A stretch of DNA of 22,821 nt from the NCBI GenBank assembly GCA_041497675.1, contig JBGQGY010000053.1, positions 1 through 22,821 on the forward strand. The letters are read 5' to 3'. Under the pieces are notes generated by a model that did not search any database, had not been told where the DNA came from, and worked only from the letters and a program-made list of their open reading frames with translations. Positions 1,343 to 22,821 of this stretch are shown here, one piece after another. The translations under genes and the position numbers were made by a program. The DNA is from a bacterium. GTDB taxonomy: Bacteria > Sysuimicrobiota > Sysuimicrobiia > Sysuimicrobiales > Humicultoraceae. How positions within the stretch are numbered: position 1 is the first letter of the stretch; each line of letters starts with the position of its first letter.

Positions 1343-2781
1343 GGGTGCTCTTTGTGGTCTCTGAAGCAGTGCCGTTTGCCAAGACCGGTGGACTCGGCGA
1401 TGTGGCCGGCGCCCTGCCGGCAGCGCTCCGGCGGAAGGGGCTCGACGTCAGGGTGATGATGCCGCTCTACCGGGGCATACCGCGCGACGGTCTGCAACCG
1501 GTCACGCGCGCGAGTGCTGAGATCGGGGGGGCGCACCTCGAAGGCGCGATCTGGCTGGGCGCGTTTCCCAACGGGACGCCCGTGTACCTGCTGGATTGCG
1601 CGCCGCTCTACGACCGGGGTGGGCTCTACGGTGAAGGCGGCCGCGACTATGACGACAACCTGACGCGGTTTGTCTTCTTCTGTCAGGCCGCATTCGTTCT
1701 GGCGCGCGACACCTGGGCTCCCGACGTGGTGCATGGTCACGATTGGCACGCCGCCCTGGTGCCGGCCTATTTGCGGATGCACCGCAGCCCCGTGCCGACG
1801 TTGTTCACCGTTCACAACCTGGCCCACCAGGGGCTCTTTCCCGGCGACCAGTTTCGGTTGACCGGGCTGCCGGGCGAGACCTTCACCCTCGAGGGTGTCG
1901 AGTTCTACGGCCGGCTCAACGTGATGAAGGCCGGGTTGGTGTCCTCACACGTCTTGAGCACGGTCAGCGAGACGTATGCGCGCGAGATTCAAACCGATGA
2001 GTGTGGGATGGGTCTGCAGGGATTGCTGCGCGCCCGATCCGCCGACCTGTTTGGTGTGCTGAACGGCGTCGACTACTCGCAGTGGGATCCGCGTGTGGAT
2101 GAACACATCCCGGCGCGGTACGGTCCCGACGAGCTCTCCGGCAAGGCGGTGTGCAAGGCCTCGCTGCAGCAAGAGCTGGGGCTACCGGTCGAACCGCACG
2201 TGCCGGTGATTGGTGTGATCGCTCGGCTGGTGCCGCAAAAGGGGTTCGATCTGATCGCCGGCGCGCTTGATCCCATCACGGCGATGGGCGCGCAGGTCGT
2301 TGTGCTGGGGACCGGCGACCCGGCGTACGAGGCCGCCGCCCGCGCGGCGCAGGCGCGACTGCCCCACCAGGTGCGGGCGCTCATCGGCTTCGACGAGCGG
2401 CTGGCGCATCACATCGAAGCCGGCGCGGATATCTTCCTGATGCCCTCACGCTTCGAACCCTCCGGTCTCAACCAGCTCTACAGCCTGCGCTATGGGACGG
2501 TACCCGTTGTGCGGCGGACCGGGGGGCTCGCGGATAGCATCATCGATGTGACGCCGGAGACATTGCACATGGGAACAGCCAATGGGTTTGCGTTTGAACC
2601 ATACTCGACCGAGGCGCTTGTGGCGACGGTGGGCCGCGCGATTGCCGCCTACCGCGACGCGGGGTTGTGGCGCTGGTTGCAATATGTGGGGATGCGAGCA
2701 GATTTCTCGTGGGATCGGGCTGCGGAGAAGTACGTGTCCCTCTACACGATGACGATCGAGCGTGCCTCGAAATGGCGATGA
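1339..2781 (+). CDS. glgA: Glycogen synthase (GT5)
   Basis: KTGGLGDV, HGHDWH, TVHNLAHQG, PSRFEPSGLNQLYSLRYGT. GTG start overlaps the upstream stop (GTGA). Confidence 0.96.
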   Translation: MRVLFVVSEAVPFAKTGGLGDVAGALPAALRRKGLDVRVMMPLYRGIPRDGLQPVTRASAEIGGAHLEGAIWLGAFPNGTPVYLLDCAPLYDRGGLYGEGGRDYDDNLTRFVFFCQAAFVLARDTWAPDVVHGHDWHAALVPAYLRMHRSPVPTLFTVHNLAHQGLFPGDQFRLTGLPGETFTLEGVEFYGRLNVMKAGLVSSHVLSTVSETYAREIQTDECGMGLQGLLRARSADLFGVLNGVDYSQWDPRVDEHIPARYGPDELSGKAVCKASLQQELGLPVEPHVPVIGVIARLVPQKGFDLIAGALDPITAMGAQVVVLGTGDPAYEAAARAAQARLPHQVRALIGFDERLAHHIEAGADIFLMPSRFEPSGLNQLYSLRYGTVPVVRRTGGLADSIIDVTPETLHMGTANGFAFEPYSTEALVATVGRAIAAYRDAGLWRWLQYVGMRADFSWDRAAEKYVSLYTMTIERASKWR

Positions 2782-4457
2782 TAGCCTATTTTTGCATGGA
2801 AGTCGGTCTCGATCGGGCGATGCCTACGTATAGCGGTGGGCTAGGTGTGCTCGCCGGAGACACCCTGCTGACGGCGGCGGATCTGGGGATCCCCATGGTC
2901 GGCGTCACCCTGCTGCATCGCAAAGGGCACTTTCGCCAGAGGCTTGACGCCGCCGGGAATCAGACCGAGGAACCGGCGTCCTGGTCACCCGAGGCCTTTC
3001 TCCAACCGCTGGCGGCCCGCGCAGTCGTCGCGATCGAGGGACGTGCTGTGCACGTGCGTCCTTGGCGTCTGGCGATCCACGGTTCCAACGAACACACCGT
3101 GCCCGTGTACTTCCTCGACACTGACCTGCCCGAGAACAGCCCGGAGGATCGGTCTCTGACCGACTTCCTGTACGGCGGGGACGGGAACTACCGGTTGGCG
3201 CAGGAAGCGATCTTAGGCTTCGGGGGCGTGGCGTTGCTACGCGCCCTGGGACACGACGTGCGCACCTACCACATGAATGAAAGCCACACCGCGCTGCTCG
3301 TCGTCGGCCTGCTGGAGGACCAAACGCAGGGGCGCGGTCTTGACAAGGTCACCGAAGCCGACGCGCAAATGATCCGGGAGCGTTGTGTGTTCACCACGCA
3401 TACGCCGGTGGCGGAGGGGCACGACCAGTTTTCTTTCGACATGGTGCGTCAGATCTTGGGCTCGGATCGGGCCGCCTTTTTCGAAACCCACCCATCCTGC
3501 CGGGACGGCGCCTTGAACATGACCCAACTGGCCCTGTATTTCTCCCGCTATATCAACGGCGTGTCGATGCGACACGCAGAGGTCTCGCGCGGTCTGTACC
3601 CGCACCACTCGATCAATTCCATCACGAACGGCGTGCACGCCGTCAGATGGGCCGCGGACTCGTTCCGCCGCTTGTACGACAAACGGTTCCCGCAGTGGCG
3701 GAGAGACCATCAGTATCTCCGGTATGCGATCGGCATCCCTCTTGACGAGATCCAGCAGGCCCACACTGAGGCGAAGGGGATGCTGCTGGCCGAGATCCAC
3801 CGGAGGACCGGCGTCCAACTGGAGCGGGACGTCTTGACGCTGGGCTTCGCGCGCCGGGCGACGGGCTATAAGCGGGCCGACCTGCTGTTCTCCGATCCGG
3901 AACACCTGCGGCACATTGTCGAACGAGCAGGTCGCGTTCAGGTCATCTACGCGGGGAAGGCGCATGCGCGCGACGAAGGCGGCAAACAGCTGATCCGTCG
4001 GGTGTTTGAAGCGGCAGGCGTGTTGAACGGCATCGTGCCCGTTTTGTACCTGCAGGACTACGACGTAGACCTCGCGGCGCAGATTTGCGCAGGAGTCGAC
4101 ATCTGGCTCAACACGCCGCAAAAACCGAGAGAAGCCTCGGGGACCAGCGGGATGAAAGCCGCCCTCAACGGCGTGCCGAGCTTCAGCGTGCTGGACGGCT
4201 GGTGGATCGAGGGCTGTGTCGAGGGAGTCACGGGCTGGTCGATCGGCGATGGTCCCGAATCGGAGAGCAATCCAGCCCTGGAGATCGCTTCGCTGTATGG
4301 AAAACTGGAACATGACGTCCTTCCCACCTTCTATGAGCGACCGGAGCATTTCCGGCAGATGATGCGCTGGGCGATCGCCATCAACGGCGCGTATTTGAAC
4401 ACCCATCGGATGTTGGCCCAGTACGCGCGCCATGCCTATCGCGCTGGGCCGGTGTGA
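2778..4457 (+). CDS. glgP: Alpha-glucan phosphorylase (GT35, short form)
   Basis: YSGGLGVLAGD, HMNESH, FTTHTP, GFARRATGYKR, PLP-lysine motif EASGTSGMKAALNG. ATGA overlap with the glgA stop. Confidence 0.95.
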   Translation: MIAYFCMEVGLDRAMPTYSGGLGVLAGDTLLTAADLGIPMVGVTLLHRKGHFRQRLDAAGNQTEEPASWSPEAFLQPLAARAVVAIEGRAVHVRPWRLAIHGSNEHTVPVYFLDTDLPENSPEDRSLTDFLYGGDGNYRLAQEAILGFGGVALLRALGHDVRTYHMNESHTALLVVGLLEDQTQGRGLDKVTEADAQMIRERCVFTTHTPVAEGHDQFSFDMVRQILGSDRAAFFETHPSCRDGALNMTQLALYFSRYINGVSMRHAEVSRGLYPHHSINSITNGVHAVRWAADSFRRLYDKRFPQWRRDHQYLRYAIGIPLDEIQQAHTEAKGMLLAEIHRRTGVQLERDVLTLGFARRATGYKRADLLFSDPEHLRHIVERAGRVQVIYAGKAHARDEGGKQLIRRVFEAAGVLNGIVPVLYLQDYDVDLAAQICAGVDIWLNTPQKPREASGTSGMKAALNGVPSFSVLDGWWIEGCVEGVTGWSIGDGPESESNPALEIASLYGKLEHDVLPTFYERPEHFRQMMRWAIAINGAYLNTHRMLAQYARHAYRAGPV

Positions 4458-4458
4458 C

Positions 4459-5190
4459 GTGCCATCTCTGAAACCGGTCGCCCTCTTCGTCACCTGTCTG
4501 GTCGATCAACTTTTCCCGCGCGTCGGTGAGGCCACCGTTCGCGTGCTCGAGCGCGCGGGGTGCGATGTGTATTTTCCTGAGGCGCAGACCTGCTGCGGTC
4601 AGGCGACGTTCAACGACGGCTTCTGGGATGAGGCGAGACCGCTGGCCCGCCGGTTTCTCGACGTATTCAGCGATGCACGACAGATCGTGACACCGTCGGG
4701 ATCGTGCGCCGCGATGGTGCGCGAATGGTATCCACACCTGCTGCGCGACGACCCGGCGGTGGCGACCCGCGCGCGAGAGATCGGGCACCGGACGTACGAG
4801 CTGAGCGAATTCCTGGTGCGCGTCTTAGGACTGACCGATCTCGGCGTGCGCTTCCCCGCCGCGGTCGCCTATCATCCATCGTGCCACGGTCTGAGGGCGT
4901 TGGGCCTGCGTGATGAGCCGGTGCGCCTTCTGCGCGGCGTGCGGGATCTTCGCCTGGTCGATCTACCGCGAGCCGAAGAATGCTGCGGGTTCGGCGGGTT
5001 CTTTTCGGTCAAATTCTCCGAACTGTCCGGCGCGATGCTGGACACGAAGATGGACTCGATCGAAGCCAGTGGCGCGGACGTCGTGACGGCCACCGACGCC
5101 AGTTGCCTGATGCACATCGCCGGGGGGCTGGCCCGCCGCGGAAGTAAGGTCCGGGCGATGCACTTGGCGGAGATCCTGGCGGGCGAATGA
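4459..5190 (+). CDS. lutA: Lactate utilisation protein A (CCG Fe-S domains)
   Basis: LFVTCLVD, QTCCGQ, SGSC, YHPSCH, EECCGFGGFFSVK, DASCLMHI. Confidence 0.92.
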   Translation: MPSLKPVALFVTCLVDQLFPRVGEATVRVLERAGCDVYFPEAQTCCGQATFNDGFWDEARPLARRFLDVFSDARQIVTPSGSCAAMVREWYPHLLRDDPAVATRAREIGHRTYELSEFLVRVLGLTDLGVRFPAAVAYHPSCHGLRALGLRDEPVRLLRGVRDLRLVDLPRAEECCGFGGFFSVKFSELSGAMLDTKMDSIEASGADVVTATDASCLMHIAGGLARRGSKVRAMHLAEILAGE

Positions 5191-6641
5191 TGGCAAGGCA
5201 CGCACTCCCCCACATCGACATCATCGGTAACACCGAGCGGGCATTGCAGGACCGTGAACTGCGGGGAGCCCTGGGCAGGCTCTCCGCGCTGCGCCAGCTT
5301 CGGGCCGCGGCCGTCTCGGAGGTCCCCGAGTGGGAAGCGTTGCGCGTGATCGCGGCGGCCGCGAAAGATCACGCGCTCGCGCACCTCGACACCCACCTCT
5401 TGCAACTGGAAGCCCGCATCACTGCCCTGGGCGGCGTGGTCCACTGGGCGGCCGACGGCGACGCGGCCCGCCGCATCATCATCGACCTGGCCCGGGACCG
5501 CGGTGTGCGCACCGTCGTGAAGAGCAAGTCGATGGTGACGGAAGAGATCCACCTCAACCCGGCATTCGACGCGGCGGGCATCAAGGTCGTCGAGACCGAC
5601 CTGGGGGAGTACGTCTGCCAGCTCGCCGGCGAGGCACCGAGCCACCTGATCGCGCCAATCATCCACAAGTCGGTGGCGTCGGTCTCTGAGCTCTTCACCG
5701 AGAAACTCGGCGTGGATCGCACCGATCAACCCGAGCAGTTGAACCGTGTGGCGCGGCAGGTCCTGCGCGCGGAGTTCCTGGCCGCGGACATGGGCATCAC
5801 CGGCGTGAACTTTGCGGTTGCCGAGACCGGCACGGTGGTCGTCGTCGAAAACGAAGGCAACGCGCGGCTCTGCACGACGCGCCCGCGGATTCACGTGGCG
5901 CTGATGGGTATTGAGAAGGTGCTGCCGCGGCTTGCCGATCTCGGGGTGCTGCTGCGCCTGCTGGCCCGCAGCGCGACCGGGCAGCGCGCCAGCGTGTACG
6001 TGTCACTGATCACCGGGCCGCGCCGGCCGGGCGAGACAGACGGGCCGGAGGAATTTCACCTCGTCATCCTCGACAACGGCCGCACGCGGCTGCTGGCCGA
6101 TCCGCAGTTGCGGGAATCGCTGCGGTGCATCCGGTGTGGGGCCTGTCTCAACGTGTGTCCCGTGTACGAGCGCGTCGGCGGGCACGCGTATGAGGCCGTA
6201 TACTCGGGCCCCATCGGCGCGGTCATCACGCCCGCTCTGGAAGGGCTCGAGCGGGCCGGCGAACTGCCCTTCGCGTCGTCGCTGTGCGGCGCCTGCGCGG
6301 AAGTCTGCCCGGTGAAGATCGATTTGCCGCGGATGCTGATCGAGCAGCGCAACCGCGCGGTGCGCAGCGGGCTGACGGGCCGCGTCGACCGCCTGTTCGC
6401 ACGCGCATGGACGCTCGCGATGGGCAGCCCGGCTCGGCTTGGTTTCTTGGCGGGCCTCGGCCGCATCGTGCAGCGGGCCGTCGTCCGCCGTGGCCGGATC
6501 GAACGGCTCCCGTATCCATTTGCCGGCTGGACCGCGCATCGCACGGCACCGCCGCTCGCCGCGACGTCATTTCGTACGTGGTGGAAGACGACGGGAGGCC
6601 GGACGCCGCGAGAGGCGCCGGCGAAGGGTCCTCACCGATGA
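5187..6641 (+). CDS. lutB: Lactate utilisation protein B (LUD domain plus two 4Fe-4S clusters)
   Basis: KSKSMVTEEI, ETDLGEY, ENEGN, CIRCGACLNVCP, SSLCGACAEVCPVKI. Confidence 0.94.
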   Translation: MMARHALPHIDIIGNTERALQDRELRGALGRLSALRQLRAAAVSEVPEWEALRVIAAAAKDHALAHLDTHLLQLEARITALGGVVHWAADGDAARRIIIDLARDRGVRTVVKSKSMVTEEIHLNPAFDAAGIKVVETDLGEYVCQLAGEAPSHLIAPIIHKSVASVSELFTEKLGVDRTDQPEQLNRVARQVLRAEFLAADMGITGVNFAVAETGTVVVVENEGNARLCTTRPRIHVALMGIEKVLPRLADLGVLLRLLARSATGQRASVYVSLITGPRRPGETDGPEEFHLVILDNGRTRLLADPQLRESLRCIRCGACLNVCPVYERVGGHAYEAVYSGPIGAVITPALEGLERAGELPFASSLCGACAEVCPVKIDLPRMLIEQRNRAVRSGLTGRVDRLFARAWTLAMGSPARLGFLAGLGRIVQRAVVRRGRIERLPYPFAGWTAHRTAPPLAATSFRTWWKTTGGRTPREAPAKGPHR

Positions 6642-7270
6642 GCCGTGAGCAGGTCCTGGAGCGCATCCGCGCCGCGCTCGGCGATGTCCCCGCGCGGGCA
6701 GACGAAGCGGCCGGACTTCCCACGTTACCCACCCCGCAGGTGTTTGCCGATCCCGTCGGGATGTTCGTCGAACGCTCGCGCCAACTCAGTATGACCGCCG
6801 AGATCGTCGCGTCGATGGACGATGCCGCCGCGCACGCGGCCGCATGGTGCGCCGGACGGGCCGCCCGCCGGGTCGCGGTGTGGAGCAGCGCTGACCTTCA
6901 ATCCGTTGTCGATCGCATCCGCGCGGCCGGTGTCGAGATCCTGGTGCCAGGATCGCCGCTCGACGCGCTGGCCTCGGCCGACATCGGCATCACGGGGGCG
7001 GAGTGGGGGATCGCCGAGACCGCGACGCTGGTCCTGTCTACAGATCCTGGCCGGCCGCGGCTCACCTCGCTACTCCCGCCGGCCCACATGGCGATTCTCC
7101 GCGCAGACCGAATCCTAGCGGATCTGCCCGCGCTTTTCGCTCGGTGCGGCGCGCTGCCGTCCGCGCTCACGCTCGTGACGGGTCCCAGCCGCAGCGCCGA
7201 CATCGGGTTTGTCCCCGTGCTGGGCGCCCACGGTCCGATGGCCGTGGCGGTGTTTGTGATCGCAAACTGA
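6638..7270 (+). CDS. lutC: Lactate utilisation protein C (LUD domain)
   Basis: MSREQVLERIRAAL start with ATGA overlap; IAETATL, SLLPPAH, TGPSRSADI, GAHGP. Confidence 0.9.
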   Translation: MSREQVLERIRAALGDVPARADEAAGLPTLPTPQVFADPVGMFVERSRQLSMTAEIVASMDDAAAHAAAWCAGRAARRVAVWSSADLQSVVDRIRAAGVEILVPGSPLDALASADIGITGAEWGIAETATLVLSTDPGRPRLTSLLPPAHMAILRADRILADLPALFARCGALPSALTLVTGPSRSADIGFVPVLGAHGPMAVAVFVIAN

Positions 7271-7286
7271 AGAGGAGGGCCAACAG

Positions 7287-8369
7287 GTGCTTGTCATCGA
7301 TTCACATCTCGACCTGGCCATGAACGCCTTGGGGTGGAACCGCGATCTGCGGCAGTCCGCGTACACGATCCGGGCGCAGGAAGCTCACACGCCGGGGAAG
7401 GGCAAAGGGGTAGGCACCGTCGCCTTCCCGGAAATGCGCAAAGGACGCATGGCCCTGAGCTTTGCCACGGCGATCGCGCGGTCGACGGGCCGGCCGGCCC
7501 CAAACATCGACTATCTGTCGTCGGCGCAGGCGCACGCGGTGGGTATGGGGCACATCGCGTACTATCATGCGTTGGAGCGTCAGGGCGACGTTCGCGTGAT
7601 CCGCGATGCGGCGTCGCTCGATCGCCACATGAACGAGTGGGTCGCCTGGGATGCCGCGCACCCGACTGATGATTCGTCGGAGACGCCGCCCCTGGGCTTT
7701 GTAATTAGCATGGAAGGGGCCGATCCGATCCTCGACCCCGGCGAACTCGAGGCGTGGTGGAAGCAGGGACTACGGATGATCAGCCTGAGCCACTACGGCC
7801 CCGGCCGGTACGCGGGTGGCACCGGAACGGAGTTTGGGCTGGGCGCCCAGGCGGTCCCCCTGTTGACCGAGATGAAGCGCCTGAACATCCTCCTCGACCT
7901 GACGCACTGTTCCGACGAAGCTTTCTGGCAGGCGCTGGATCACTTCGACGGGCGCGTCATGGCGAGCCACAACAACTGTCGGGCACTCGTCCCCCATCAG
8001 CGCCAGTTCACCGATGATCAGATCAAGGCCATCGCGAGCCGCGGCGGCGTGATCGGCGCGGCCATGGACAACTGGATGATACGAGCCGGCTGGCGCCACG
8101 GCGATGATCCCGCGCTGGTGTGCCTCGACGACGCCGTCAAGCACATCGACTACATGTGCCAGCTGGTCGGCAGCGCCAAGCACGTGGGCATCGGCACCGA
8201 CCTAGACGGCGGGTACGGCCGCGAGGGCTCGCCAAGGGATCTGGACACCATCGCGGATTTACAGAAGATCGTGGGGTTGCTGGCGCAGCGCGGCTACTCG
8301 CGCGATGATATCACCGCCATCATGTGGGGGAACTGGTCATCGTTCCTGCGCACCGTGTGGGCAAAATAG
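7287..8369 (+). CDS. Membrane/renal dipeptidase family (peptidase M19) metallo-hydrolase
   Basis: IDSHLD, SMEGAD, DLTH, SHNN, GIGTDLDGG, GNW. RBS GAGGAGG before the GTG start. Confidence 0.9.
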   Translation: MLVIDSHLDLAMNALGWNRDLRQSAYTIRAQEAHTPGKGKGVGTVAFPEMRKGRMALSFATAIARSTGRPAPNIDYLSSAQAHAVGMGHIAYYHALERQGDVRVIRDAASLDRHMNEWVAWDAAHPTDDSSETPPLGFVISMEGADPILDPGELEAWWKQGLRMISLSHYGPGRYAGGTGTEFGLGAQAVPLLTEMKRLNILLDLTHCSDEAFWQALDHFDGRVMASHNNCRALVPHQRQFTDDQIKAIASRGGVIGAAMDNWMIRAGWRHGDDPALVCLDDAVKHIDYMCQLVGSAKHVGIGTDLDGGYGREGSPRDLDTIADLQKIVGLLAQRGYSRDDITAIMWGNWSSFLRTVWAK

Positions 8370-8401
8370 CGAAGATGCGCCTTCCGCCTCACTCGTGCGT
8401 C

Positions 8402-8447
8402 TTGACACCAACCTGGGAGTAGACTTATACGTATAAGTACACGTGTA
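8402..8447 (+). promoter_or_regulatory. Promoter/operator of the TA operon
   Basis: TTGACA at 8402-8407; perfect palindrome ACTTATACGTATAAGT at 8423-8438 and TACACGTGTA at 8438-8447 covering the expected -10 region. Confidence 0.7.
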
Positions 8448-8462
8448 GTGGAGACAGGGGCC

Positions 8463-8693
8463 ATGCAAAGGAAGCTGACCATCACGGTTGATGAGCGGGT
8501 CTACAAGGGGCTGCACGCCGCTGTCGGGCGACGGCGAATCAGCCGGTTCATCGAGTCCTTGGTGCGACCCTACGTGGTCGGCAAAGACATTGAGGCGGCC
8601 TACCGGCAGATGGCGAAGGACGAGGCGCGCGAGGCCGAAGCGCTGGAATGGGCAGAATCGACTGTCGGTGACGTCCGCGATGAAACGCGGTGA
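8463..8693 (+). CDS. Antitoxin (RHH-like) of type II TA module
   Basis: 76 aa; N-terminal MQRKLTITVDE...ISRFIE; acidic C-terminus AYRQMAKDEAREAEALEW; overlaps the toxin start. Confidence 0.85.
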   Translation: MQRKLTITVDERVYKGLHAAVGRRRISRFIESLVRPYVVGKDIEAAYRQMAKDEAREAEALEWAESTVGDVRDETR

Positions 8694-8976
8694 GGTCTGG
8701 TGGGTTCGCAAAGAGCGTCCTGCCGTGATCGTCAGCAACGATGCCGCGAACAAGTACCTGAATCGTCTACAGGTCATACCGCTCACCAGCAACGTGGAGC
8801 GGCTGTACCCCAGCGAAGCCTATGTGACGGTGCGCGGGAAGAAGCACAAAGCCATGGCTGATCAGTTGACCACGGTGAGCAAGAGCCGGCTTCGAAAGCT
8901 TTTCGGTCGTCTTTCCAGGGCCGACCTGACGGGAGTGGAGCAGGCGATCAAAGTGCAACTAGACTTGGCTCTATGA
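8680..8976 (+). CDS. mazF: PemK/MazF family toxin with apparent ~10-aa in-frame deletion
   Basis: MKRGEVWWV-RKERPAVIVSND...VIPLTS...ADQLTTVSKSRL. The usual 'xDPxxGxE' segment is missing. Confidence 0.88.
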   Translation: MKRGEVWWVRKERPAVIVSNDAANKYLNRLQVIPLTSNVERLYPSEAYVTVRGKKHKAMADQLTTVSKSRLRKLFGRLSRADLTGVEQAIKVQLDLAL

Positions 8977-8992
8977 AGGCGTACCGTCATCA

Positions 8993-10612
8993 TCAGGCCT
9001 TTCCGTCAATTCGTGCATGGAAAGCGTTCCACAGTTGCAACGACCAGGACTCAAGCACGTCGATGCTCACGGCGCGGTAGGGATCGATGTCGGTGAGGGC
9101 GCCGGGGATTGACTCCGCGGGAGTGTTGTAAAGAGATAGGGCGGCTTCATGCCAGTATTTCGGAATCGCGACGCGTTCCTGGTACAGATGGTCCAGCCGC
9201 TGACGATACTCTGCTGCGCTCTTGCCGGAGCGGATGTCGGTCAGATGGGTCGTGATCCATGTGGGCGCGGCGGCCAGGCCCAAGAGTCGCCGGGTAGCGG
9301 TGTTCACGTTGAGCCGGTGAATGCTCATGATGTCCTCGCCTATCCGCGCGAAATAGCCGTGCCAGTCCTTCGTCTTCTCGACCTCGGACCTCTCCAGGTA
9401 CGCTATCAACTCCTGCACCTCCGGGCTTAGGCGATAGAGCGCCTCCGTCCATTCGGTCAGGTTCGTCACCTCACTCTTAGCCCGGTCGATTCGCGCCCTC
9501 AGGTCGTTGATGCGGGCCGTGAGGAACGTCGCGTCATTTGCGCGGTCATAGAAATGACGGCCGAGGCCGCCGTCCGCCTGGATCAGGAGAAAGCCTGTCA
9601 GCCGTGAGCCGGGCGCCCAGCGATGTTCATGCAGGCGGCCGATGAGGCCGCGGGCATAGTCCGTCCCCTTTTGGTCCCTGGCCATGTTGGCGGCGTGCAC
9701 GAACAGGCCGAAGGCCCCTTGGTCCCCCAGGCCGTCGACGACCTTCTGTGAGCCGATCTGGTGCAGAACGCCTGCCTGCTTCGCCACGACCTCGAGATAG
9801 GAGATCGCGGGTCCAATGTGCGGCGGGTCGAAATAGCCGGCTGCGGTCACATAGGGGACGTCGACGAAGTCGCGCTCGGCGGGCAACGCGTCCAAATCCG
9901 GCTTGTGGTCGGCCAAGAAGAGCCAGGTCGGCGGTGGCCCCGTTTCCCCAGGCCGTGAGAACGTGAGCTTGCCCGCGACGATGACGAGGTAGTCGCGCAA
10001 CCGCAGGCGTGATGCGTGCAGCACCCGATCCTCACGGCGAGTGGGTGTTGCCGCGGGTCCTTTCGGCTGGGGCCCGGCCATGTGCGGGGGCCGTCTTCCA
10101 CGGCTCACTCTTTTCACACTGAGGCGGGTGCCATCGGTGAAGGTGATTGTGGCGGGTCCGGTTGGCGTCGTCTGCTGAATGTCCTGGATGCCTGTCTTGT
10201 TGACCTCCAGGAGAAATTGCTCCGAAAACGAGAGGACGGCGAGTTCAAGCACGTACTCCATATACTCGTTGACCTGGCGATAGGTTGGGGTCAGCAAGGC
10301 GCTGCGCAGGCTGGGATCGGCTTCGGACATCTGCTCGATGTATTGGCCGAAGGTCGGAAACCCGACGGGCAGCTTGTCGCTATAAAATGGATGCAGATCC
10401 ATTGGGCTGCTGCCGTCAAGCGGGTACGCGGTATCGTCTTTTGGCTTAGCCTCGTCCTTCGTGTCGAACAACACGACCTTAGCGGGAGGGGCGCCGTCCG
10501 GTGTGTTGTACGCGATATCGACGAGCGTGTTGATGAGCGCGGCCATGCCCGCATGACCCGAACCGACGACTGCGATAGGATGGTCTTCACTCTTGGCGTT
10601 GGCCATCATCAC
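8993..10612 (-). CDS. Hypothetical protein; N-terminal FAD/NAD(P)-binding Rossmann-like domain, unknown C-terminus
   Basis: IAVVGSGHAG (GxGxxG) followed by VVLFD; 539-aa ORF; GGAAGG RBS-like sequence upstream. Confidence 0.7.
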   Translation of the reverse strand: MMMANAKSEDHPIAVVGSGHAGMAALINTLVDIAYNTPDGAPPAKVVLFDTKDEAKPKDDTAYPLDGSSPMDLHPFYSDKLPVGFPTFGQYIEQMSEADPSLRSALLTPTYRQVNEYMEYVLELAVLSFSEQFLLEVNKTGIQDIQQTTPTGPATITFTDGTRLSVKRVSRGRRPPHMAGPQPKGPAATPTRREDRVLHASRLRLRDYLVIVAGKLTFSRPGETGPPPTWLFLADHKPDLDALPAERDFVDVPYVTAAGYFDPPHIGPAISYLEVVAKQAGVLHQIGSQKVVDGLGDQGAFGLFVHAANMARDQKGTDYARGLIGRLHEHRWAPGSRLTGFLLIQADGGLGRHFYDRANDATFLTARINDLRARIDRAKSEVTNLTEWTEALYRLSPEVQELIAYLERSEVEKTKDWHGYFARIGEDIMSIHRLNVNTATRRLLGLAAAPTWITTHLTDIRSGKSAAEYRQRLDHLYQERVAIPKYWHEAALSLYNTPAESIPGALTDIDPYRAVSIDVLESWSLQLWNAFHARIDGKA

Positions 10613-10725
10613 ACCTTCCGTGGTCCATCTGCATGATCACACGTTGCTTTCACGCGGATGTGATCACTTGCCCACTTGTAGTCTAGGCCCCCACCAGCTT
10701 CGATGACTTGTTGCTTCGTCTTCAT
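10609..10725 (-). CDS. Putative 38-aa small ORF MKTKQQVIEAGGGLDYKWASDHIRVKATCDHADGPRKV
   Basis: AGGGAG 7 nt before ATG; its stop overlaps the next gene's start (GTGA). Below the ORF-track cutoff. Confidence 0.35.
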   Translation of the reverse strand: MKTKQQVIEAGGGLDYKWASDHIRVKATCDHADGPRKV

Positions 10726-10858
10726 TGCATGACTCCCTAGTCAGACTTCAGCGGGTCTTGTTCCTTGGACCGACCAGTTTACCTCCAGAAGATTGCGGGC
10801 CTGCCCGCGCGGCTACCCGGCTGAGGAGAACGCGACGATCATGTACGGGCGGAAAGCC

Positions 10859-10892
10859 GCAGGGGGCCGGTGATCAGCCGTCGGCCCCCTGC
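10859..10892 (-). terminator. Intrinsic terminator-like hairpin
   Basis: GCAGGGGGCCG / CGGCCCCCTGC stem 23 nt after the stop at 10916, followed by GGCTTTCC on the minus strand. Confidence 0.65.
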
Positions 10893-10915
10893 AGACGATG
10901 GAAGGTGGTAGCTAG

Positions 10916-11866
10916 CTAGTGCCTAATGTTGAATGGATTCTGCCGCGGATGCCGCCCATTGACGCCGAGGAAGATTTCGTCCTGCGTCCCCATCCGATCG
11001 TCGATCTTCAGGGAGAACTGCACCACGTCGCCCTGATTCATGGTGAAGTCGAATCCGTCACCGCCCCCCGAATTGGACGCGTTCCATTGCATATTGTTCC
11101 CCCGCTGCCGAACCGCAGAGACCCCGGGGTACGCGGGCGAGAAGGCCGTGAGGCGCCCCTGCACTGTGGCCTGGCCATTGAAACGGTGCTGCTGCCCCTG
11201 AGCTGATGTCCACCGGAGGTGTACACCCTGGTCGTCCGTCCAGATGTAATAGCCGGTCGGCCAGACGGAGAACTGCGGCGCGCCCCAAATGTTGGATCGC
11301 CTGTTGGATCGCCGGGAATCCTGAGCCGGGTCTATCGGCGATCCGGGCGCCACCGCGATCTGCGGCTGGAAGGTCAGCGCGAACGGATTTGCCGCGGGAT
11401 GGTATCCGCGCGCGCCGAGGTAGATCTCCTGCCTCGTCGCGTTGCGGCCGTCCAACAACAGCGAAAACTGCACGACGTCGCCAGGGTTGACCGCAAAGTC
11501 GAAACCGTCACCGCCCCCGGAATTGGACATGTTCCAGAGTATCCTGTTGCCCTGCTGCCGGACCGCGGAGACCCCGGGGTACGCGCGCGAGAAGGATGCA
11601 ATCCGTCCTTGCACGGTTGCCTGACCGTTGAATCGATGGGTCTGTCCCTGGGCGGCTGTCCACCTCACGTGAAGACCCTGCTCGTCTGTCCAGATGAAGT
11701 ATCCATTTGGCCAGACCTTCAGTTGCAGTGCGCCCCAGGTGTCCAGCCCCGGGTACTGCGGTGCAAACACTGTCCCCTGCGCGCCGACCGGCAGCGCAAT
11801 GAAGACAGATAGGCTCAGTGTACATATCGTGAGAATTGTCGCTAGAACTGTCGCTCGAAATCGCAT
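10916..11866 (-). CDS. Secreted protein with two tandem ~119-aa beta-rich repeats
   Basis: Signal peptide MRFRATVL...VGA-Q; RBS GGGAGG; repeated WP.GY.IWTD..G.H.RWT...HRFNG...GGGDGFDF...NPF. Confidence 0.85.
   Translation of the reverse strand: MRFRATVLATILTICTLSLSVFIALPVGAQGTVFAPQYPGLDTWGALQLKVWPNGYFIWTDEQGLHVRWTAAQGQTHRFNGQATVQGRIASFSRAYPGVSAVRQQGNRILWNMSNSGGGDGFDFAVNPGDVVQFSLLLDGRNATRQEIYLGARGYHPAANPFALTFQPQIAVAPGSPIDPAQDSRRSNRRSNIWGAPQFSVWPTGYYIWTDDQGVHLRWTSAQGQQHRFNGQATVQGRLTAFSPAYPGVSAVRQRGNNMQWNASNSGGGDGFDFTMNQGDVVQFSLKIDDRMGTQDEIFLGVNGRHPRQNPFNIRH
10931..11737. repeat. Internal direct repeat, ~357 bp units at 10931-11287 and 11381-11737
   Basis: Shared DNA blocks, e.g. ccgtcaccgcccccggaattggac-like and agaccccggggtacgcg, at a 450-bp offset. 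Confidence 0.9.
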
Positions 11867-13821
11867 CACATTGACCTCCCTGAATCTATCAACTGTAGTG
11901 CGCGACGGCTTAAGGGCTCTGGCCAAACACGGGCCAGAGTGGCCTTTGTTGTGACGGCCTCAGAGCGCCGGCCCAGTGGGTCGATGGTCACGGCCGTGAT
12001 CGTGAGTTCGGCGTTGGAAATGCGCACCATCTGGTTGATCGTCACCGCCCAGTCGCCCGCGGCGTCTGTGATGGTCGTGACCTTTCCATAGGTGCCTTTC
12101 AGGTTGAGCACGAGCAGCGCGCCCTGGTAGTCGACTTGAACCTCGACCCGATACCCGGGGGTGGCCTTGCCCCGGATCACGATCGGGGCTCCCACACGTG
12201 CCCCAGCCGCCGGGGAGGTGATGACAGGCGGCGCCACGCCTTCGGTCGCCACGATGATCAGCCGCGCTGCGTCCGCCTGGCTCGTGACGTCGCCCTTGCT
12301 CAACCTCACGATGATGCGCGCGTTCTGTGCGGCGACTCGTTCTCGCGGCCGGATCGTGTACGAGCCGACATAGACCCCCCGCTGGGTGGCCGCTTCGGTC
12401 ATGGGGATGTTCTCTTCGACGCCCTCGATCGTGAAGGAGGCCTGTCCTCCAGGTTCGCCGAGCATCGTCACGGTCAGGACATCGCGCGGCCGGAGCGGCG
12501 TGACGGGGCGTACCGTCACGGACCGGATAAGCGATGTCTGTTGGATCGCGGTTGTGAACACGTACTCCTCCTGGGTGACGTTGCCGGCCCTGTCCGCGAG
12601 GATCACGCGGACCAGCACGCGCCCTATCAGGGCATCCGGCGGGCTGTAGGCCAGAGCGGTCTCGGTGATCGAGACCCGCGCGGTCACGTTCTGGCCGTTC
12701 ACGAGCAACCGGCTGCGGGCAGGGTCAATGCCCGACCCGGCGTCATTGAAGGCAATGAGAATGTTGGGGCGAACGTTGTTCACCGTTTGGCCCTTCTCCG
12801 GGAAACGCTGGACGATTTGGGGCGCTATGCCGTCGAGCGTCACCGGGGTCCCGGCCTGAACGAGCGGCGATTCTTGCCCGTTGACGCGCAGTCGTCCCAT
12901 AACGATGGCTGCGGCCACGTTGTCCTGAGGACGGACCGTGTAACTCCCCCGATAGACTCCGGACGAGACCTGACGCATCGCGACCCCGGAGACGACGCCG
13001 AAGATGTCGAAACTCGCTGTGCCTCCCGTCGTTCCCCTGAGGGTGACGGTTACCGGGGAGCCGGCGCTGAGCGGCGACGTCACGTTGTGAGTAAAGGAAA
13101 TGATCTGGACGTTACCGGCGGGAGGCGCGGGCGGCTGGACCGCCTGTGTACGTGACTGTACGACCACGACTTGGCTTGTCTGCGGGTTCAGCCGCAAGCG
13201 GACTTCCATCCCCACTCGCAGTTGCTCGCGCGTCGCCTCTTGGCCATTCACGATGAACCTCACCCCATCGGCGAATGTGAAGATCTGTCCATCGGACAGG
13301 GCGATGGAGCGGCTGGTGATCGCGTCGATCCGGCCCGTGATGATACGCTCGGCCGGTTGCGGCGCGGGTGCGGGCTGAACCGGTAAGGCGGTGGTCCCTG
13401 AGGTGATGGTCACGAGGCGGGTGGTGTTATCCCAGTCCACCTGAGCCCCCATTGCCTCACTCACGAAGCGGAGAGGCACAAGCGTCCGCCCCCCAACGAT
13501 TGTCGCCGGAACGTCGAGGAGGACCACACGGCCGTTGACGATCGCCTGGCGGCTGCCGATGGCCAGCTGCACCTGCGTGTCTGCGCGCTGCGCGGTAACG
13601 ACGTTCGTTGCAGGGTTCCAGAGCACCGTGGCTCCAAGGTGCTCGAAGACTCCTCGAAGCGGCACGAGAACCCGGCCGCCGGCCACGACCGGAGGCTGAT
13701 CAAACCCCATCAGTTGGCCGTCGACCACGACGCTGACAGTCTGCGCCAGGGCCGGGACGGCCGGTAGGGCGATAATGGCAAGGCTCAACGCGAGAGCCAG
13801 TGACAGGAAACGTAGTATCAT
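11866..13821 (-). CDS. Secreted protein: copper amine oxidase N-terminal (stalk) domain plus Ig-like repeats
   Basis: Signal peptide; GRVLVPLRGVFEHLGATV.W and GRTLVPLRFVSEAMGAQVDWD; two GG.ASF.I...GVY.GSYT repeats; DRAGN motif; RBS GGGGAGG; TGATG overlap with the next gene. Confidence 0.88.
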   Translation of the reverse strand: MILRFLSLALALSLAIIALPAVPALAQTVSVVVDGQLMGFDQPPVVAGGRVLVPLRGVFEHLGATVLWNPATNVVTAQRADTQVQLAIGSRQAIVNGRVVLLDVPATIVGGRTLVPLRFVSEAMGAQVDWDNTTRLVTITSGTTALPVQPAPAPQPAERIITGRIDAITSRSIALSDGQIFTFADGVRFIVNGQEATREQLRVGMEVRLRLNPQTSQVVVVQSRTQAVQPPAPPAGNVQIISFTHNVTSPLSAGSPVTVTLRGTTGGTASFDIFGVVSGVAMRQVSSGVYRGSYTVRPQDNVAAAIVMGRLRVNGQESPLVQAGTPVTLDGIAPQIVQRFPEKGQTVNNVRPNILIAFNDAGSGIDPARSRLLVNGQNVTARVSITETALAYSPPDALIGRVLVRVILADRAGNVTQEEYVFTTAIQQTSLIRSVTVRPVTPLRPRDVLTVTMLGEPGGQASFTIEGVEENIPMTEAATQRGVYVGSYTIRPRERVAAQNARIIVRLSKGDVTSQADAARLIIVATEGVAPPVITSPAAGARVGAPIVIRGKATPGYRVEVQVDYQGALLVLNLKGTYGKVTTITDAAGDWAVTINQMVRISNAELTITAVTIDPLGRRSEAVTTKATLARVWPEPLSRRALQLIDSGRSM

Positions 13822-13959
13822 GTGTGATTCCTCCCCAACCGTTCTCAGCCGGTCTGAGGGCCTGCGGGATGGATCCCCTCCAGGTCCTCGGACACCGGTG
13901 GTAGCCATCAGGGCTCTATTTCTGGAGCTTCGAGATCTTCGATCGCGCAATCCGAGCCT

Positions 13960-13998
13960 CAGACTGGGCTTCCCTGAAGAGGTGGGAAGCCCAGTCTG
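13960..13998. terminator. Perfect 15-bp hairpin downstream of the small secreted gene
   Basis: CAGACTGGGCTTCCC-N9-GGGAAGCCCAGTCTG; no clear U-tract. Confidence 0.55.
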
Positions 13999-14021
13999 TG
14001 CCCAGAGGTACCTGTCTGTTT

Positions 14022-14219
14022 TTACGGTGTGAAGGGGGTCCACTGGCCGGTCTGCTGGTGGTTCACATACCGCTGATAGCCGGCTTCGGACATGAAGTTC
14101 ATCGATGCGCTGAAGGCTATGAGGGTGGCCGTGTTGGGCGACTGCTGGGCCGACGCGACACCCACGAACGCTGCCGAGAGCATCATCACGCTTAGGACGA
14201 TGACTGCGAGCTGTTTCAT
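14022..14219 (-). CDS. Small secreted protein, 65 aa
   Basis: RBS GGAGAGGAG; signal peptide ending ASA-QQ; followed by a hairpin. Confidence 0.75.
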   Translation of the reverse strand: MKQLAVIVLSVMMLSAAFVGVASAQQSPNTATLIAFSASMNFMSEAGYQRYVNHQQTGQWTPFTP

Positions 14220-18120: not shown

Positions 18121-18840
18121 TTAACGGCCGTCAGATAAAGTTTTTTGAGCTGCCATATATCTTTTAATACGAGCCTCCTCTTCAGAGCGGTATTCTGCGA
18201 TTCGATCGTGAGTAACCTCTTCGAGTGCGTGTTGGAGTGCTGCGGATTCGAGGTCCTGACAGTAAGCGGGCGTTCCGGCCTGCTGGCGCCAGGAGTTGTC
18301 TAGAGTGCCACCATCGACTGGGTCGAAACCAAGGTCGTCGACAAGACGAAGCACTGTTGCCTTGCCATCCAGTGAATCTCCAGCGACGGAGAGAGCAATT
18401 CGGCCTGGCGCTCCTCTCGGAACCCCCTTCTCAAGAAGGCTCTTGGCGAAGATGTTATTGAACGCCTTGATCACGGGACGTCCGATTTGGTGCGCGACCC
18501 ACTGGCTGTCCAGCATACCTCGATCAATCGCCTCGATGTAGCCATCGCGAAGCTCCGGATGGTAGTTGCCAGTATCGACCACGATGACGTCGGATGAAAC
18601 GTTCGCAAACAGCCCTTTCGGAAGATCGACAACGGCCTTTGTTGGAATCGAGATGATAACGATTTCTCCGGCTTTGGCGGCATCAGTCACAGAAACTGCC
18701 TTTGCACCAATTTCATTCGCAAAATCGGTCAGGCTCTCTGGACCTCTTGAATTCGCAATCGAAACTTGATGTCCGAGTTTAGTAAGGTGGCGCGAAAGCG
18801 TCCCGCCAATGTTTCCAGAACCTATAATTCCGATCCGCAT
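18121..18840 (-). CDS. NADPH-dependent F420 reductase / NADP oxidoreductase family
   Basis: MRIGIIGSGNIG, ANSRGP, DTGNY, VIKAFNNI, SWRQQAGTP; RBS AAGGAG; visibly more AT-rich than the core operon. Confidence 0.9.
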   Translation of the reverse strand: MRIGIIGSGNIGGTLSRHLTKLGHQVSIANSRGPESLTDFANEIGAKAVSVTDAAKAGEIVIISIPTKAVVDLPKGLFANVSSDVIVVDTGNYHPELRDGYIEAIDRGMLDSQWVAHQIGRPVIKAFNNIFAKSLLEKGVPRGAPGRIALSVAGDSLDGKATVLRLVDDLGFDPVDGGTLDNSWRQQAGTPAYCQDLESAALQHALEEVTHDRIAEYRSEEEARIKRYMAAQKTLSDGR

Positions 18841-18977
18841 ATGTATTTCTCCTTTGATTTCTGTTCCAAAATTCCAGTTTTCCCTGCGCAATGCTCATGC
18901 GTTAGCCTATGGCAGGCCGAGCAAGCAGCTTTGTGTTACGGTTCCAGGACATGGCCTGATCACTCTTTCCGTCTGCC

Positions 18978-19062
18978 GTCGAACGTGTTGCGCATGAGCA
19001 GACGCCGATGCGCTTCGGGATGATTCTACCTTTTGGCGTTCTGCTCGATGCGCTTGTTAGCC
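18978..19062 (-). other. attC site (85 bp)
   Basis: Minus strand GGCTAAC-aagcgcatcgagcagaacgcc...ggcgtctgctcatgcgc-aacac-GTTCGAC; imperfect hairpin with bulges. Confidence 0.85.
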
Positions 19063-19068
19063 AGCTAC

Positions 19069-19311
19069 TCAGTCCTGACGTGGGACTATGAAGACTGTCA
19101 CTCTGAACTCATCCTCAATTCGCTCCAGATCGTTCACGAGCCCGCCCGGGTTAGAAATGCCGCCTTCGGGGTCGTAGACGAGGCAGACCAAGTGGTCACA
19201 GTCGGGATGCTGTCTGTAGTGCTCGATATCAAGAATGAGATGCTCGCCAACCTGCTTCGCGCCCAGGGATGCTCGCGTCATCTTCGTCTCGATGACCACG
19301 CGTTCCGGCTT
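19069..19311 (-). pseudogene. C-terminal remnant of a PD-(D/E)XK nuclease (DpnII-MboI-like REase domain)
   Basis: KPERVVIETKMTR..LGAKQVGEHLILDIEHYRQHPDCDHLVCLVYDPEG.ISNP; the upstream catalytic Asp region is missing. Confidence 0.7.
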
Positions 19312-19728
19312 TCAGTCGTCGATTGCCTCAACACCAAGTCGCTTAAGTCGCTCAATGTTGTCCTTCATGGCCTTGAGCGCTTCGGGGGAATGCCCCTGCC
19401 AATCCGTGCACTCGCCCGTGACCCGTAGCGGCTCCCGGGAGCGGTATGACTTCGTCGGATTACCCGGGTATTTCTTGTCCGTCAGATTGGGGTCATCCAT
19501 AATCGGGCCGGTCGGTTCCACTATGTAGATTCTGCCGGGACCTTCGCCGAGTGCCAGCTCCGCCCCCCAAGTGGCTGCCTCCAGGGTGGCGGTCAGGTAG
19601 ACGTAGGTTGCTTGCTTCCTCTTACCATAGTTGGAGCTATAACCGGGCTCGATTGGGTCTCCCGGCTTCAGGTCGGCCCGTGTGCCATGGTAGAACCGCT
19701 GCGAACCCGGGTCGTCGGTGGCTGCCAT
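19312..19728 (-). CDS. arr: NAD(+)-rifampin ADP-ribosyltransferase
   Basis: FYHGTRADL.PGD, VYLTATL..A.WGAELA, RIYIVEPTG, DDPNLTDKKYPGNPTKSYRS; 138 aa. Confidence 0.95.
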   Translation of the reverse strand: MAATDDPGSQRFYHGTRADLKPGDPIEPGYSSNYGKRKQATYVYLTATLEAATWGAELALGEGPGRIYIVEPTGPIMDDPNLTDKKYPGNPTKSYRSREPLRVTGECTDWQGHSPEALKAMKDNIERLKRLGVEAIDD

Positions 19729-20006
19729 CGGCTTGCTCCCCTCATACTGCGCGGCTGCGATGCCTCGCGATGCTGTCGGTCTTGGATGGGACGTGCGCTG
19801 CACTCACGACGAATCCTCCGCCGAGTCATGGCCGAGTATGCCCTCAGCACATGCGAAAGAGGAGACTGCACCTCGACGCGCTGGCGACGTACAATGGAAT
19901 TGGCGAGGGACGCGTCAATGCCCCAAGCCGAGAAGAGAACGGGGGCACCCGAAGGTGCCTAGCGTTCGTTCAAATGGGCGGACAACGGCCGCCCATTCGC
20001 GAGTCT

Positions 20007-20103
20007 GGCTAACGACTGCGTTCACTTGCCGGGCCGGCTGCAAGGAACTGAAGTCTTGAAAAACCGTCATGCCGGCCCGGTCAAGTGCAACGCTTTGTTA
20101 GCC
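20007..20103 (-). other. attC site (97 bp)
   Basis: Minus strand GGCTAAC-aaagc-GTTGCACttgaccgggccggc...gccggcccggcaaGTGAAC-gcagtc-GTTAGCC. Confidence 0.92.
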
Positions 20104-20142
20104 GGCACCCCGGAACGAAGATGGACGGTCTCACCCTCATCG

Positions 20143-20703
20143 TCAGCTCTTCGCTCGGTACCGAACGTGAACCATACCGTTGTCGAACCTGCGTTCATCG
20201 AGAAGTTCGAGCTTCACGGGGACCTTGCCTGGCAGATAGGGATTGCCGCTGCCCGCGATGATCGGCGCGATGAGTAGGTGATATTCGTCGACAAGGCCAG
20301 CTCGAATGGCATGCGCTGCGAGCGCCGGACCGCCCACCGCAACCTCGCGGGTCGCTCCTGCCTTGAGTTCCCGTACAACGTCCGCCTCGAATTTCCGCTC
20401 GAGCCGCGTCTTGGCCGTAGAGACCGTCTGCAGCGTCGTCGAGTACACGATCTTTTCAGCCGCCTGCCAGATCGGCGCGAACTCCAGCACGGCTGCTGTC
20501 CGATGGGGAAACACATCTAGCGTCTCCCAAACGGCCATCGTCTCGTACATCTTGCGCCCAAAGAGATAGGTGCCGATCTGCCTCTCGCGGCTGTTAATGA
20601 AGGCGTGGACTTCCTCATCTAGCTCCGCCCAATCGAAGTTGCCGGTTTCATCCGCAACATAACCATCGAGCGACGTAAACGCGGCGTAGATCAGTTTGGC
20701 CAT
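20143..20703 (-). CDS. Dihydrofolate reductase-like / RibD C-terminal domain protein
   Basis: SLDGY, LFGRKMYE, K.VYSTTL, VGG..LA, GLVDEY; RBS GGAGG. Confidence 0.9.
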   Translation of the reverse strand: MAKLIYAAFTSLDGYVADETGNFDWAELDEEVHAFINSRERQIGTYLFGRKMYETMAVWETLDVFPHRTAAVLEFAPIWQAAEKIVYSTTLQTVSTAKTRLERKFEADVVRELKAGATREVAVGGPALAAHAIRAGLVDEYHLLIAPIIAGSGNPYLPGKVPVKLELLDERRFDNGMVHVRYRAKS

Positions 20704-20753
20704 CGTGCACCCTCCGTCTCTCAATCAGCCCTTGAGAAGCCGCATATGAGTCC

Positions 20754-22333: not shown

Positions 22334-22821
22334 TCACTGACGCACATAGCGCAAGTGTGTGGCAGCTGGACCATCAAGAACCTTGTCAATGCGAAACTGC
22401 GGCCCGGGCTCGCGTAGGTTCTCGAAGAGACGCCGCCCACCGCCGAACAATACGGGTGACAAGGCGATTTCCAGCTCGTCAACGACACCCATGGTCAGGT
22501 ACTGCTGGATCACATCGGCTCCACCCGCGATACGAATATCACGACTGCCTGCGGATTCCCGAGCCAGCTCAAGGGCACGCTCCGGCCCGTCATTGATGAA
22601 GTAGAAGGTCGTCCCACCCGGGCGCGCCCAGGGTTCGCGTTTCTCATTGGTAAGAACGTATACCGGTGTGTGAAACGGAGCCTCCTCTGGCCAGGCGCGC
22701 TCGCCTTGGTCGAACATTCGCTTGCCCATAATGTTGGCACCGATGCGCTCCGTGGTGCTGCGAAGCAGGTCATTGACCGGGCCGGTCTCTCCCCCTGGTC
22801 CGAGCTTGAGGTTCTCGCGGA
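22334..22821 (-). CDS. Dihydrofolate reductase-like / RibD C-terminal domain protein (5' end outside window)
   Basis: Frame open to the edge (RENLKLGPGG...GANIMGKRMF); IAGGADVIQQY, VDEL, PVLFGGGRRLF. Confidence 0.9.
   Translation of the reverse strand, partial: RENLKLGPGGETGPVNDLLRSTTERIGANIMGKRMFDQGERAWPEEAPFHTPVYVLTNEKREPWARPGGTTFYFINDGPERALELARESAGSRDIRIAGGADVIQQYLTMGVVDELEIALSPVLFGGGRRLFENLREPGPQFRIDKVLDGPAATHLRYVRQ

Follow-up and report, generated by a model that had tools for sequence, protein, structure and literature searches.

The last full cassette of an integron cassette array raises the question of how a rifampicin resistance gene, arr, came to share one cassette and one attC with the end of a nuclease gene. 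The array lies at the end of the stretch of DNA analyzed here (the window; 22,821 bp, 62.6% G+C) and is read on the minus strand. In the preliminary description of this locus, arr was taken to have been captured inside a nuclease cassette, a possible snapshot of the genesis of a resistance cassette; fusion of two cassettes by deletion and readthrough of the arr stop codon were named as alternatives.

A covariance model built from 15 attCs (four from the window and 11 from the loci L030, L040, and L014) and applied to the whole window with filters off recovered five sites, all on the minus strand. These were located at 22328-22269, 21401-21318, 20897-20754 (attC3; 33 bits, E = 3e-6, outside the training set), 20103-20007 (attC4, the attC of the RibD_C cassette upstream of the composite one; 47.6 bits, in the training set), and 19062-18978 (attC5, the only attC of the composite cassette; 68.1 bits, in the training set). 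The best score anywhere else in the window was 16.2 bits with this model, which was trained on one attC family, so that others may escape it. The array comprised at least five cassettes: cassette A (RibD_C, cut by the window end), cassette B (951 bp, coding for a 279-aa protein with no family match), cassette C (564 bp, rhodanese), cassette D (747 bp, RibD_C), and the composite arr cassette, cassette E, in last position. The two RibD_C (dihydrofolate-reductase-like) cassettes found within this one array are different from each other (22334-22819 and 20143-20724). No tyrosine recombinase or integrase was present among the window ORFs scanned, and the array continues past the window end at 22821.

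The 5' boundary of cassette E was set by the R' box of attC4 (GTTAGCC, 20013-20007), whose DNA fold displayed paired R'' and R' boxes and two bulged bases (z = -6.8). Crossover between G and TT gave a cassette of 1029 bp running from 20012 to 18984 on the minus strand, that is, from the TT of the attC4 R' to the G of the attC5 R', and the bounds previously given for it (18984..20012) were exact. Cassette E is accordingly an integron cassette, with the crossover of the preceding R' at its 5' side and its own attC at its 3' side, both strand-specific. Past it, the window contained an orphan half attC, a gene for an F420-type oxidoreductase, arfB, and glyoxalase-like and luciferase-like genes. 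The half site, read from the sequence, is R''/L''-like (GGCTAAC GCATGAGCA, 18890-18907, minus strand). It is found 76 nt farther on than attC5, to whose 3' arm it is complementary, and was not matched by the attC covariance model. It is probably an eroded end of the array, as judged from these letters. The oxidoreductase gene that follows it (18121-18843, minus strand) has a lower G+C content (52.7%, GC3 0.51), and the half site together with this gene may mark an array end that has eroded, or what was once a cassette. Rfam matched nothing at gathering threshold in the whole window, and nothing at E up to 1 in 18850-20150.

The arr gene (NAD(+)-rifampin ADP-ribosyltransferase; 19312..19728, minus strand) extends from an ATG at 19728 to a TGA at 19314-19312 and codes for 138 aa. 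It was intact, as had been claimed: the product matched Pfam PF12120 (Arr-ms; E = 4.5e-48) over profile positions 1-99 of 99, belonged at full length to NCBIfam NF033144 (223.4 bits with a cut-off of 130, profile 2-131 of 131), and aligned gap-free to the solved structure of Arr-ms (2HW2, residues 15-141; E = 3e-47). In this alignment H14, Y44, and D79 of the window Arr fell on H19, Y49, and D84 of Arr-ms, residues to which roles have been assigned in that enzyme. From these matches, the gene is predicted to confer ADP-ribosylation of rifampicin. A DNA search against a plasmid collection matched 117 records, in the arr coding region alone. The top database relatives of the window Arr were tandem Arr-Arr fusion proteins of ~240 aa from cyanobacteria and metagenomes (P0009, P0013, and P0018).

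Directly after the arr TGA, and in the frame of arr, the sequence continued with AAG CCG GAA CGC GTG and remained open for 80 codons, up to a TGA at 19071-19069. This stretch (19069..19311, minus strand) corresponds to the last 80 codons and the native stop of a DpnII/MboI-type nuclease gene (PD-(D/E)xK fold). It matched PF18742 (REase_DpnII-MboI; E = 1.7e-21) over profile positions 75-149 of 150 only, in agreement with the earlier reading of a REase-like C-terminus at this place, and it covered the 80 C-terminal residues in alignments to eight homologues of full length (252-421 aa, 44-56% identity). Its first residue is the K of the ..RMDFLLK block conserved among these homologues; the tail ended where they end, and kept 16 of the 16 residues that are invariant among them. 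The profile match is one of homology and not of a chance open frame. The N-terminal half of the domain was absent, including the (R)MDF block with the conserved D before ExK; the domain is thus incomplete and the tail cannot be a working nuclease.

Similarity of arr to its relatives ended at the stop codon and nuclease homology opened at the next codon (..DFLLKPERVVIETKMTR in P0003 as compared to the stop followed by KPERVVIETKMTR in the window), which places the break within a few bases of the step from TGA to AAG. The frame shared by arr and the tail is a one-in-three coincidence that needs no explanation. Six nt (19068-19063) separated the stop of the tail from the R'' of attC5, whereas in arr cassettes from other loci a conserved 3' UTR of 65 nt stands between the gene and its own attC. 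The position of attC5 therefore suits the nuclease and not arr, as had been noted before. Neither the 3' UTR nor the attC of the arr type present in L030, L042, and L032 survived in the window.

Relatives of the tail were sought among 1.84 billion representative proteins, exhaustively and with no profile. The search found 1713 of them, and most of the best-scoring ones listed were ~250-300 aa long, with the match at the C-terminus. By far the closest among the matches listed (64-87% identical) were three metagenomic ORFs on contigs of 1.5-2.5 kb, P0133 (78 aa, starting VVIETKM), P0151 (54 aa, starting VVIETKM), and P0211 (69 aa, starting MTRASL), all of which start where the window remnant ORF starts, with the same GTG or ATG. 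A frameshift after DPE/K was common to P0151 and P0211 and was reproduced by the +1 frame of the window (PKAAFLTRAGS followed by a stop); P0211 returned to frame before VTVFIVPRQD. P0133 diverged after PGG, and the family-invariant N of its NP motif was changed. In these relatives the tail looks like a decaying relic. A remnant start common to three ORFs from several independent assemblies argues against misassembly, and their decay argues against function. The window copy presents no decay, so that either the event was recent or the tail is tolerated. No full-length nuclease cassette more than 64% identical to the tail was found. As for the nuclease family in general, a protein search of the plasmid collection with P0131 indicated that it is common on enterobacterial plasmids (207 records).

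The R'' of attC5 is GGCTAAC (19062-19056) and its R' is GTTCGAC (18984-18978), the same R' as in attCs b and d of L030, and the two boxes pair at 5/7 positions. The site folded as a stem with two bulged bases, an attC-type hairpin, and its 68.1 bits on the minus strand compare with 10.8 on the plus strand. Its arms were nearly identical to those of L030 attCs a and b, both of which stand behind unrelated genes; the type of attC does not, therefore, identify its gene. By its boxes and arms, attC5 is an ordinary attC of a local family, and it is tied to the nuclease cassette solely by its position, 6 nt past the native stop of the nuclease. The 9-bp matching ends on which the preliminary description had relied against a fusion of two cassettes were indeed present (GGCTAACAA, at 20103-20095 and 19062-19054), but that argument fails: CTAACAA was common to 5/5 attCs of the array, and the match is thus the R'' consensus, which is uninformative on origin.

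The leader of cassette E (20012-19729, minus strand) measured 284 nt, in line with the ~285 bp reported earlier, and consisted of two parts of different character. The proximal leader (19729..19773, 45 nt) contained an imperfect 20-bp palindrome (19768-19749), CAGTATGAG, and the Shine-Dalgarno sequence GAGGGGAG. It was 78-95% identical to the bases directly 5' of arr in 10 loci from several phyla (L003, L030, L042, L032, L045, L016, L001, L028, L025, and L024), and the homology of L040 on the arr side also began at window position 19773. On this comparison, the proximal 45 nt travel with arr. The palindrome has the form GCGCGGC-N6-GCCGCGC, with one mismatch in the window, and the L030 copy of the 45-nt element lies at 9956-10000. 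It may be the rifamycin-associated element (RAE) described for Actinobacteria.

The distal leader (19774..20012, 239 nt, minus strand) was non-coding, with stops in all three frames and two hairpins (19997-19973 and 19959-19944). Beyond -45, upstream sequences differ among arr lineages in general, and the distal leader bore no significant similarity to the upstream regions of nine arr relatives. It was compared with the 111-nt leader of arr cassettes and with the leader of L007 as a possible diverged copy, and did not exceed shuffled sequences in either case. No attC-model match, Rfam match, or plasmid-collection match was obtained in it, its G+C content gave no signal of foreign origin, and no consensus promoter or terminator came up when the minus strand of the leader was scanned. 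A search for the N-terminus of the nuclease found no credible match outside the tail among 160 family proteins; the long alignment of P0175 to the leader was a spurious extension through arr. The hairpin at 19997-19973 (flanks GCCAGAC and GCTAGGC) was considered as a degenerate attC or mini-cassette and discarded, there being no model match at E up to 10. A 23-nt inverted match (CCGTTCTCTTCTCGGCTTGGGGC) was observed between window positions 19920-19943 and L001 at ~9880-9900, and also in L025 and L028, upstream of arr. It is probably due to chance, since 6 of 1000 shuffles reached it and 18 comparisons were made.

A genome scan with the read-through Arr-X-tail as query returned 79 loci, the source genome not being among them. 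All 79 matched arr only (66-90% identity) and none contained the nuclease tail. The attC model matched six of these loci (E up to 0.01), and arr itself was a cassette in three: in L030 and L042 an attC ended 111 nt before arr and another one started 65 nt past its stop, and L032 had an upstream attC plus a partial downstream attC. In L040, arr followed an attC directly behind a RibD_C cassette, its own downstream attC being only partial. This RibD_C cassette was 93% identical to window cassette D over 752 nt, and the identity broke at the crossover, immediately after GTTAG. An ad hoc attC finder was abandoned in favor of the covariance model used here; its strict form missed non-canonical R' boxes and its relaxed form gave about one match per kb in non-cassette DNA.

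Several features of these loci were recorded in their own right. In L030, from an Actinomycetota MAG, the integron is complete (2329-3315; 3480-14048), with 11 attC sites and an integron integrase (TIGR02249, 488 bits with a cut-off of 265) whose gene is co-directional with the cassettes instead of divergent; both the GTCGAAC/GTTCGAC type and GTTAGNC occur among its R boxes. L040 carries a two-cassette cluster (RibD_C and arr; 9137-10500), with no integrase among the larger ORFs scanned in the 12-kb locus, and the cluster ends in a truncated attC beside convergent thiL/thiE-like genes, in a CALIN-like manner. A second conserved element (GGTCTCAGGCCAACCTACTCCCCGTCGAGACC...) was found in the 111-nt leader of arr cassettes (L030 9899-9948, L032, L042, L045, and L040) and was absent from the window. 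It also occurred upstream of arr in L002, L004, L005, and L008 (~9923-9972) and, inverted, in L016 (9895-9935). Its presence upstream of arr in Microcoleus loci without an attC-model match suggests that the arr cassette carried native regulatory DNA.

The arr genes borne by cassettes (L030, L032, L042, and L040) are of a 133-aa type whereas the window arr is of a 138-aa type. In a quick tree with many unresolved forks, the four grouped with L045, L053, and L024 (SH-aLRT 97) and the window arr fell outside this clade. The closest reference relatives of the window arr (L001-L006, 84-90% identity, with 90% for both L001 and L002) had no attC-model match anywhere in their loci. L007 contains two arr pseudogene copies, and the first one was the sequence most similar to the window arr in the quick tree (93% over 128 columns); its arr-type 3' UTR ran into an R''-like CATCTAACAAGCGCATCGAG with no attC accepted by the model. 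The two L007 pseudogenes (229-618 and 2939-3358) have in-frame stops and lie on one MAG contig, each with an arr-type 3' UTR and an R''-like stub without an intact attC; low-G+C genes stand between them, and the contig may be a mosaic. Relatives of both the 133-aa and the 138-aa type, including both L007 copies, shared the 3' UTR that leads into an attC-like R'', which indicated that the arr lineage was formerly associated with an attC.

Cassette E is thus truly composite, with an intact arr joined to a nuclease gene of which the 3' third is left: it contains sequences of two different cassette genes and one attC, as fused cassettes do. We lean, with some reserve, toward its being a fused integron cassette in which an arr cassette and a nuclease cassette were joined by deletion. 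In such a scenario arr, with its own 45-nt 5' UTR and a long leader, would once have stood just upstream of a nuclease cassette in the array, and this downstream cassette would have encoded a protein of ~250-290 aa with the DpnII/MboI-type nuclease fold. A single deletion, presumably by illegitimate recombination or replication slippage, would have extended from a point at most a few bases away from the arr stop to the K of the nuclease DFLLK block. Lost with it would be the 3' UTR and the attC that belonged to arr, the 5' UTR of the following cassette, and some two thirds of the nuclease ORF. The resulting 1029-bp unit, bounded by the attC4 R' and attC5, should move as a single cassette via the attC of the nuclease cassette, and the nuclease tail in it would be a non-functional relic.

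This fusion is favored because the gene pool includes arr cassettes, of which the L040 one stands behind the same neighbor cassette, and because both arr types display traces of the same arrangement from 3' UTR to attC. Likewise, a long leader suits arr (111 nt in the arr cassette family) better than the ~20-55 nt of cassettes B, C, and D would, and the 5' end of cassette E is without a nuclease start. Moreover, the literature describes a class of fused cassettes that formed when the upstream attC was lost (section 2.4.4 of PMC8876359; PMC4670013). Against the fusion by deletion stand the position of the window arr outside the cassette-borne clade and the lack of attC matches around its nearest reference relatives. 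No remnant of arr's own attC was found in the window and neither parent cassette was encountered, nor was an arr cassette with the 284-nt leader of the window; homologous arr cassettes beginning with this same 5' end, which had been expected in the case of a simple two-cassette fusion, were therefore not seen. The deletion itself is what we infer from the composite.

The opposite order of events would be that an arr module not borne by a cassette (from about -45 to the stop, perhaps with more upstream DNA) entered a nuclease cassette already in place by illegitimate recombination, replaced the interior, and so gained its first attC. We consider this doubtful. The position of the window arr outside the cassette-borne clade and the lack of attC matches around its nearest reference relatives would fit it well, and both flanks of the module, that is, the distal leader and everything past the stop, were foreign to every other arr locus fetched, the first 239 bases of the leader matching no other arr leader. 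Since the first origin of cassettes is described as largely unknown in the pertinent part of PMC5371416, intermediates of their formation are also to be expected. However, upstream sequences beyond -45 vary among arr lineages generally and a unique distal leader is thus unspecific, while the 3' UTR that runs into an attC-like R'' in both arr types implies an attC association of the lineage before the event. In this order of events, the 239 nt at the 5' end should be the start of the nuclease cassette, yet stops interrupt them in every frame and none of the 160 family members resembles them, although the tail of that same gene is perfectly preserved; and the 5' UTRs of the other cassettes of the array measure only ~20-55 nt. 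From the earlier interpretation as cassette genesis, the composite nature and the attC position stood, whereas its favored status did not, given that the 9-bp argument fails, that arr is already borne by cassettes elsewhere, and that the leader lacks a nuclease start. The stronger version, in which cassette E records a resistance gene first becoming mobile (a non-cassette arr with only its 45-nt regulatory 5' UTR taking over the attC of the nuclease cassette and leaving the tail as a scar), seems to us rather unlikely. If capture were true, cassette E would be a rare natural intermediate of cassette formation, the route would involve neither an intron nor reverse transcription, and the three metagenomic remnants would display the spread of a new cassette.

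Other explanations concern the tail and the join itself. The tail might have been retained for a function, as a small protein from GTG 19299 or ATG 19281, as a spacer or terminator of arr, or as part of a readthrough Arr-nuclease fusion; its 80 codons open in the phase of arr and the 16 family-invariant residues kept in the window copy could be so explained. We regard this as very improbable, considering the half domain without the block that bears the conserved D before ExK, the frameshifts in two of the three relatives with the third truncated or divergent, and the lack of a convincing Shine-Dalgarno sequence before GTG 19299 on inspection. Readthrough of the TGA in particular was without support, since no architecture of Arr plus PF18742 occurred among the 120 arr relatives listed or in the 79 loci. 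A chimeric assembly of arr and nuclease sequences is conceivable in that cassette arrays are repeat-rich, and a misassembled junction had been mentioned as a danger for the initial interpretation; nevertheless, no repeat family was found across 19300-19320, and the start shared by three independent metagenomic ORFs would be unexpected if full-length genes stood there. An artefact at this junction is hence scarcely credible.

A fusion of this kind matters since fused cassettes lock genes together and alter what an integron can mobilize; in this environmental array, a gene for the inactivation of rifampicin could move in the future only by way of an attC that it has borrowed. As it stands, cassette E is a clear case, with sharp limits, of a rearrangement whose kind is already known. 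Among the fused class 1 integron cassettes treated in the corresponding section of PMC8876359 (blaGES-1/aacA4, blaOXA-10/aadA1, and ant(3'')-Ii/aac(6')-IId), two cassette-derived segments share a single 3' attC, as they do in cassette E. Class 1 fusions arise by loss of the upstream attC and stay mobilizable by the second one, according to the same section, and cassette E is likened to them in this respect. Those fusions usually comprise two complete genes and often retain a piece of the first attC, as far as that section reports, whereas in cassette E nothing of the first attC and only a third of the second gene, a dead tail, is left. The setting also differs, cassette E belonging to an environmental array of ~62% G+C with no integrase in view. 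With regard to other ways in which a gene may join an attC, the listed ORFs contained no intron or reverse-transcriptase match, in contrast with the group IIC-attC intron model outlined in PMC3001079.

As compared to other arr cassettes, cassette E encodes an enzyme of the same family as the clinical class 1 cassettes arr-2 to arr-8 (in the portion of PMC8492726 dealing with them) but differs in its attC family, its long leader, and the absence of a class 1 context. The window arr was similar to enterobacterial plasmid arr genes over only ~100 nt, at 76%. Closer counterparts are the cassettes of L030, L032, L042, and L040, from Actinomycetota MAGs, which share with cassette E the 45-nt proximal leader and the attC family and, in L040, the RibD_C cassette that precedes arr. 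Their arr genes, of the 133-aa type and 75-78% identical in amino acids to the window arr, have the 111-nt leader, the conserved 65-nt 3' UTR, and an attC of their own (partial downstream in L032 and L040). In cassette E, a 138-aa arr is instead preceded by an unrelated distal leader, and the nuclease tail replaces the 3' UTR and the attC. These counterparts show arr cassettes to be in circulation among soil-type integrons of Actinomycetota, together with a regulatory leader that is conserved.
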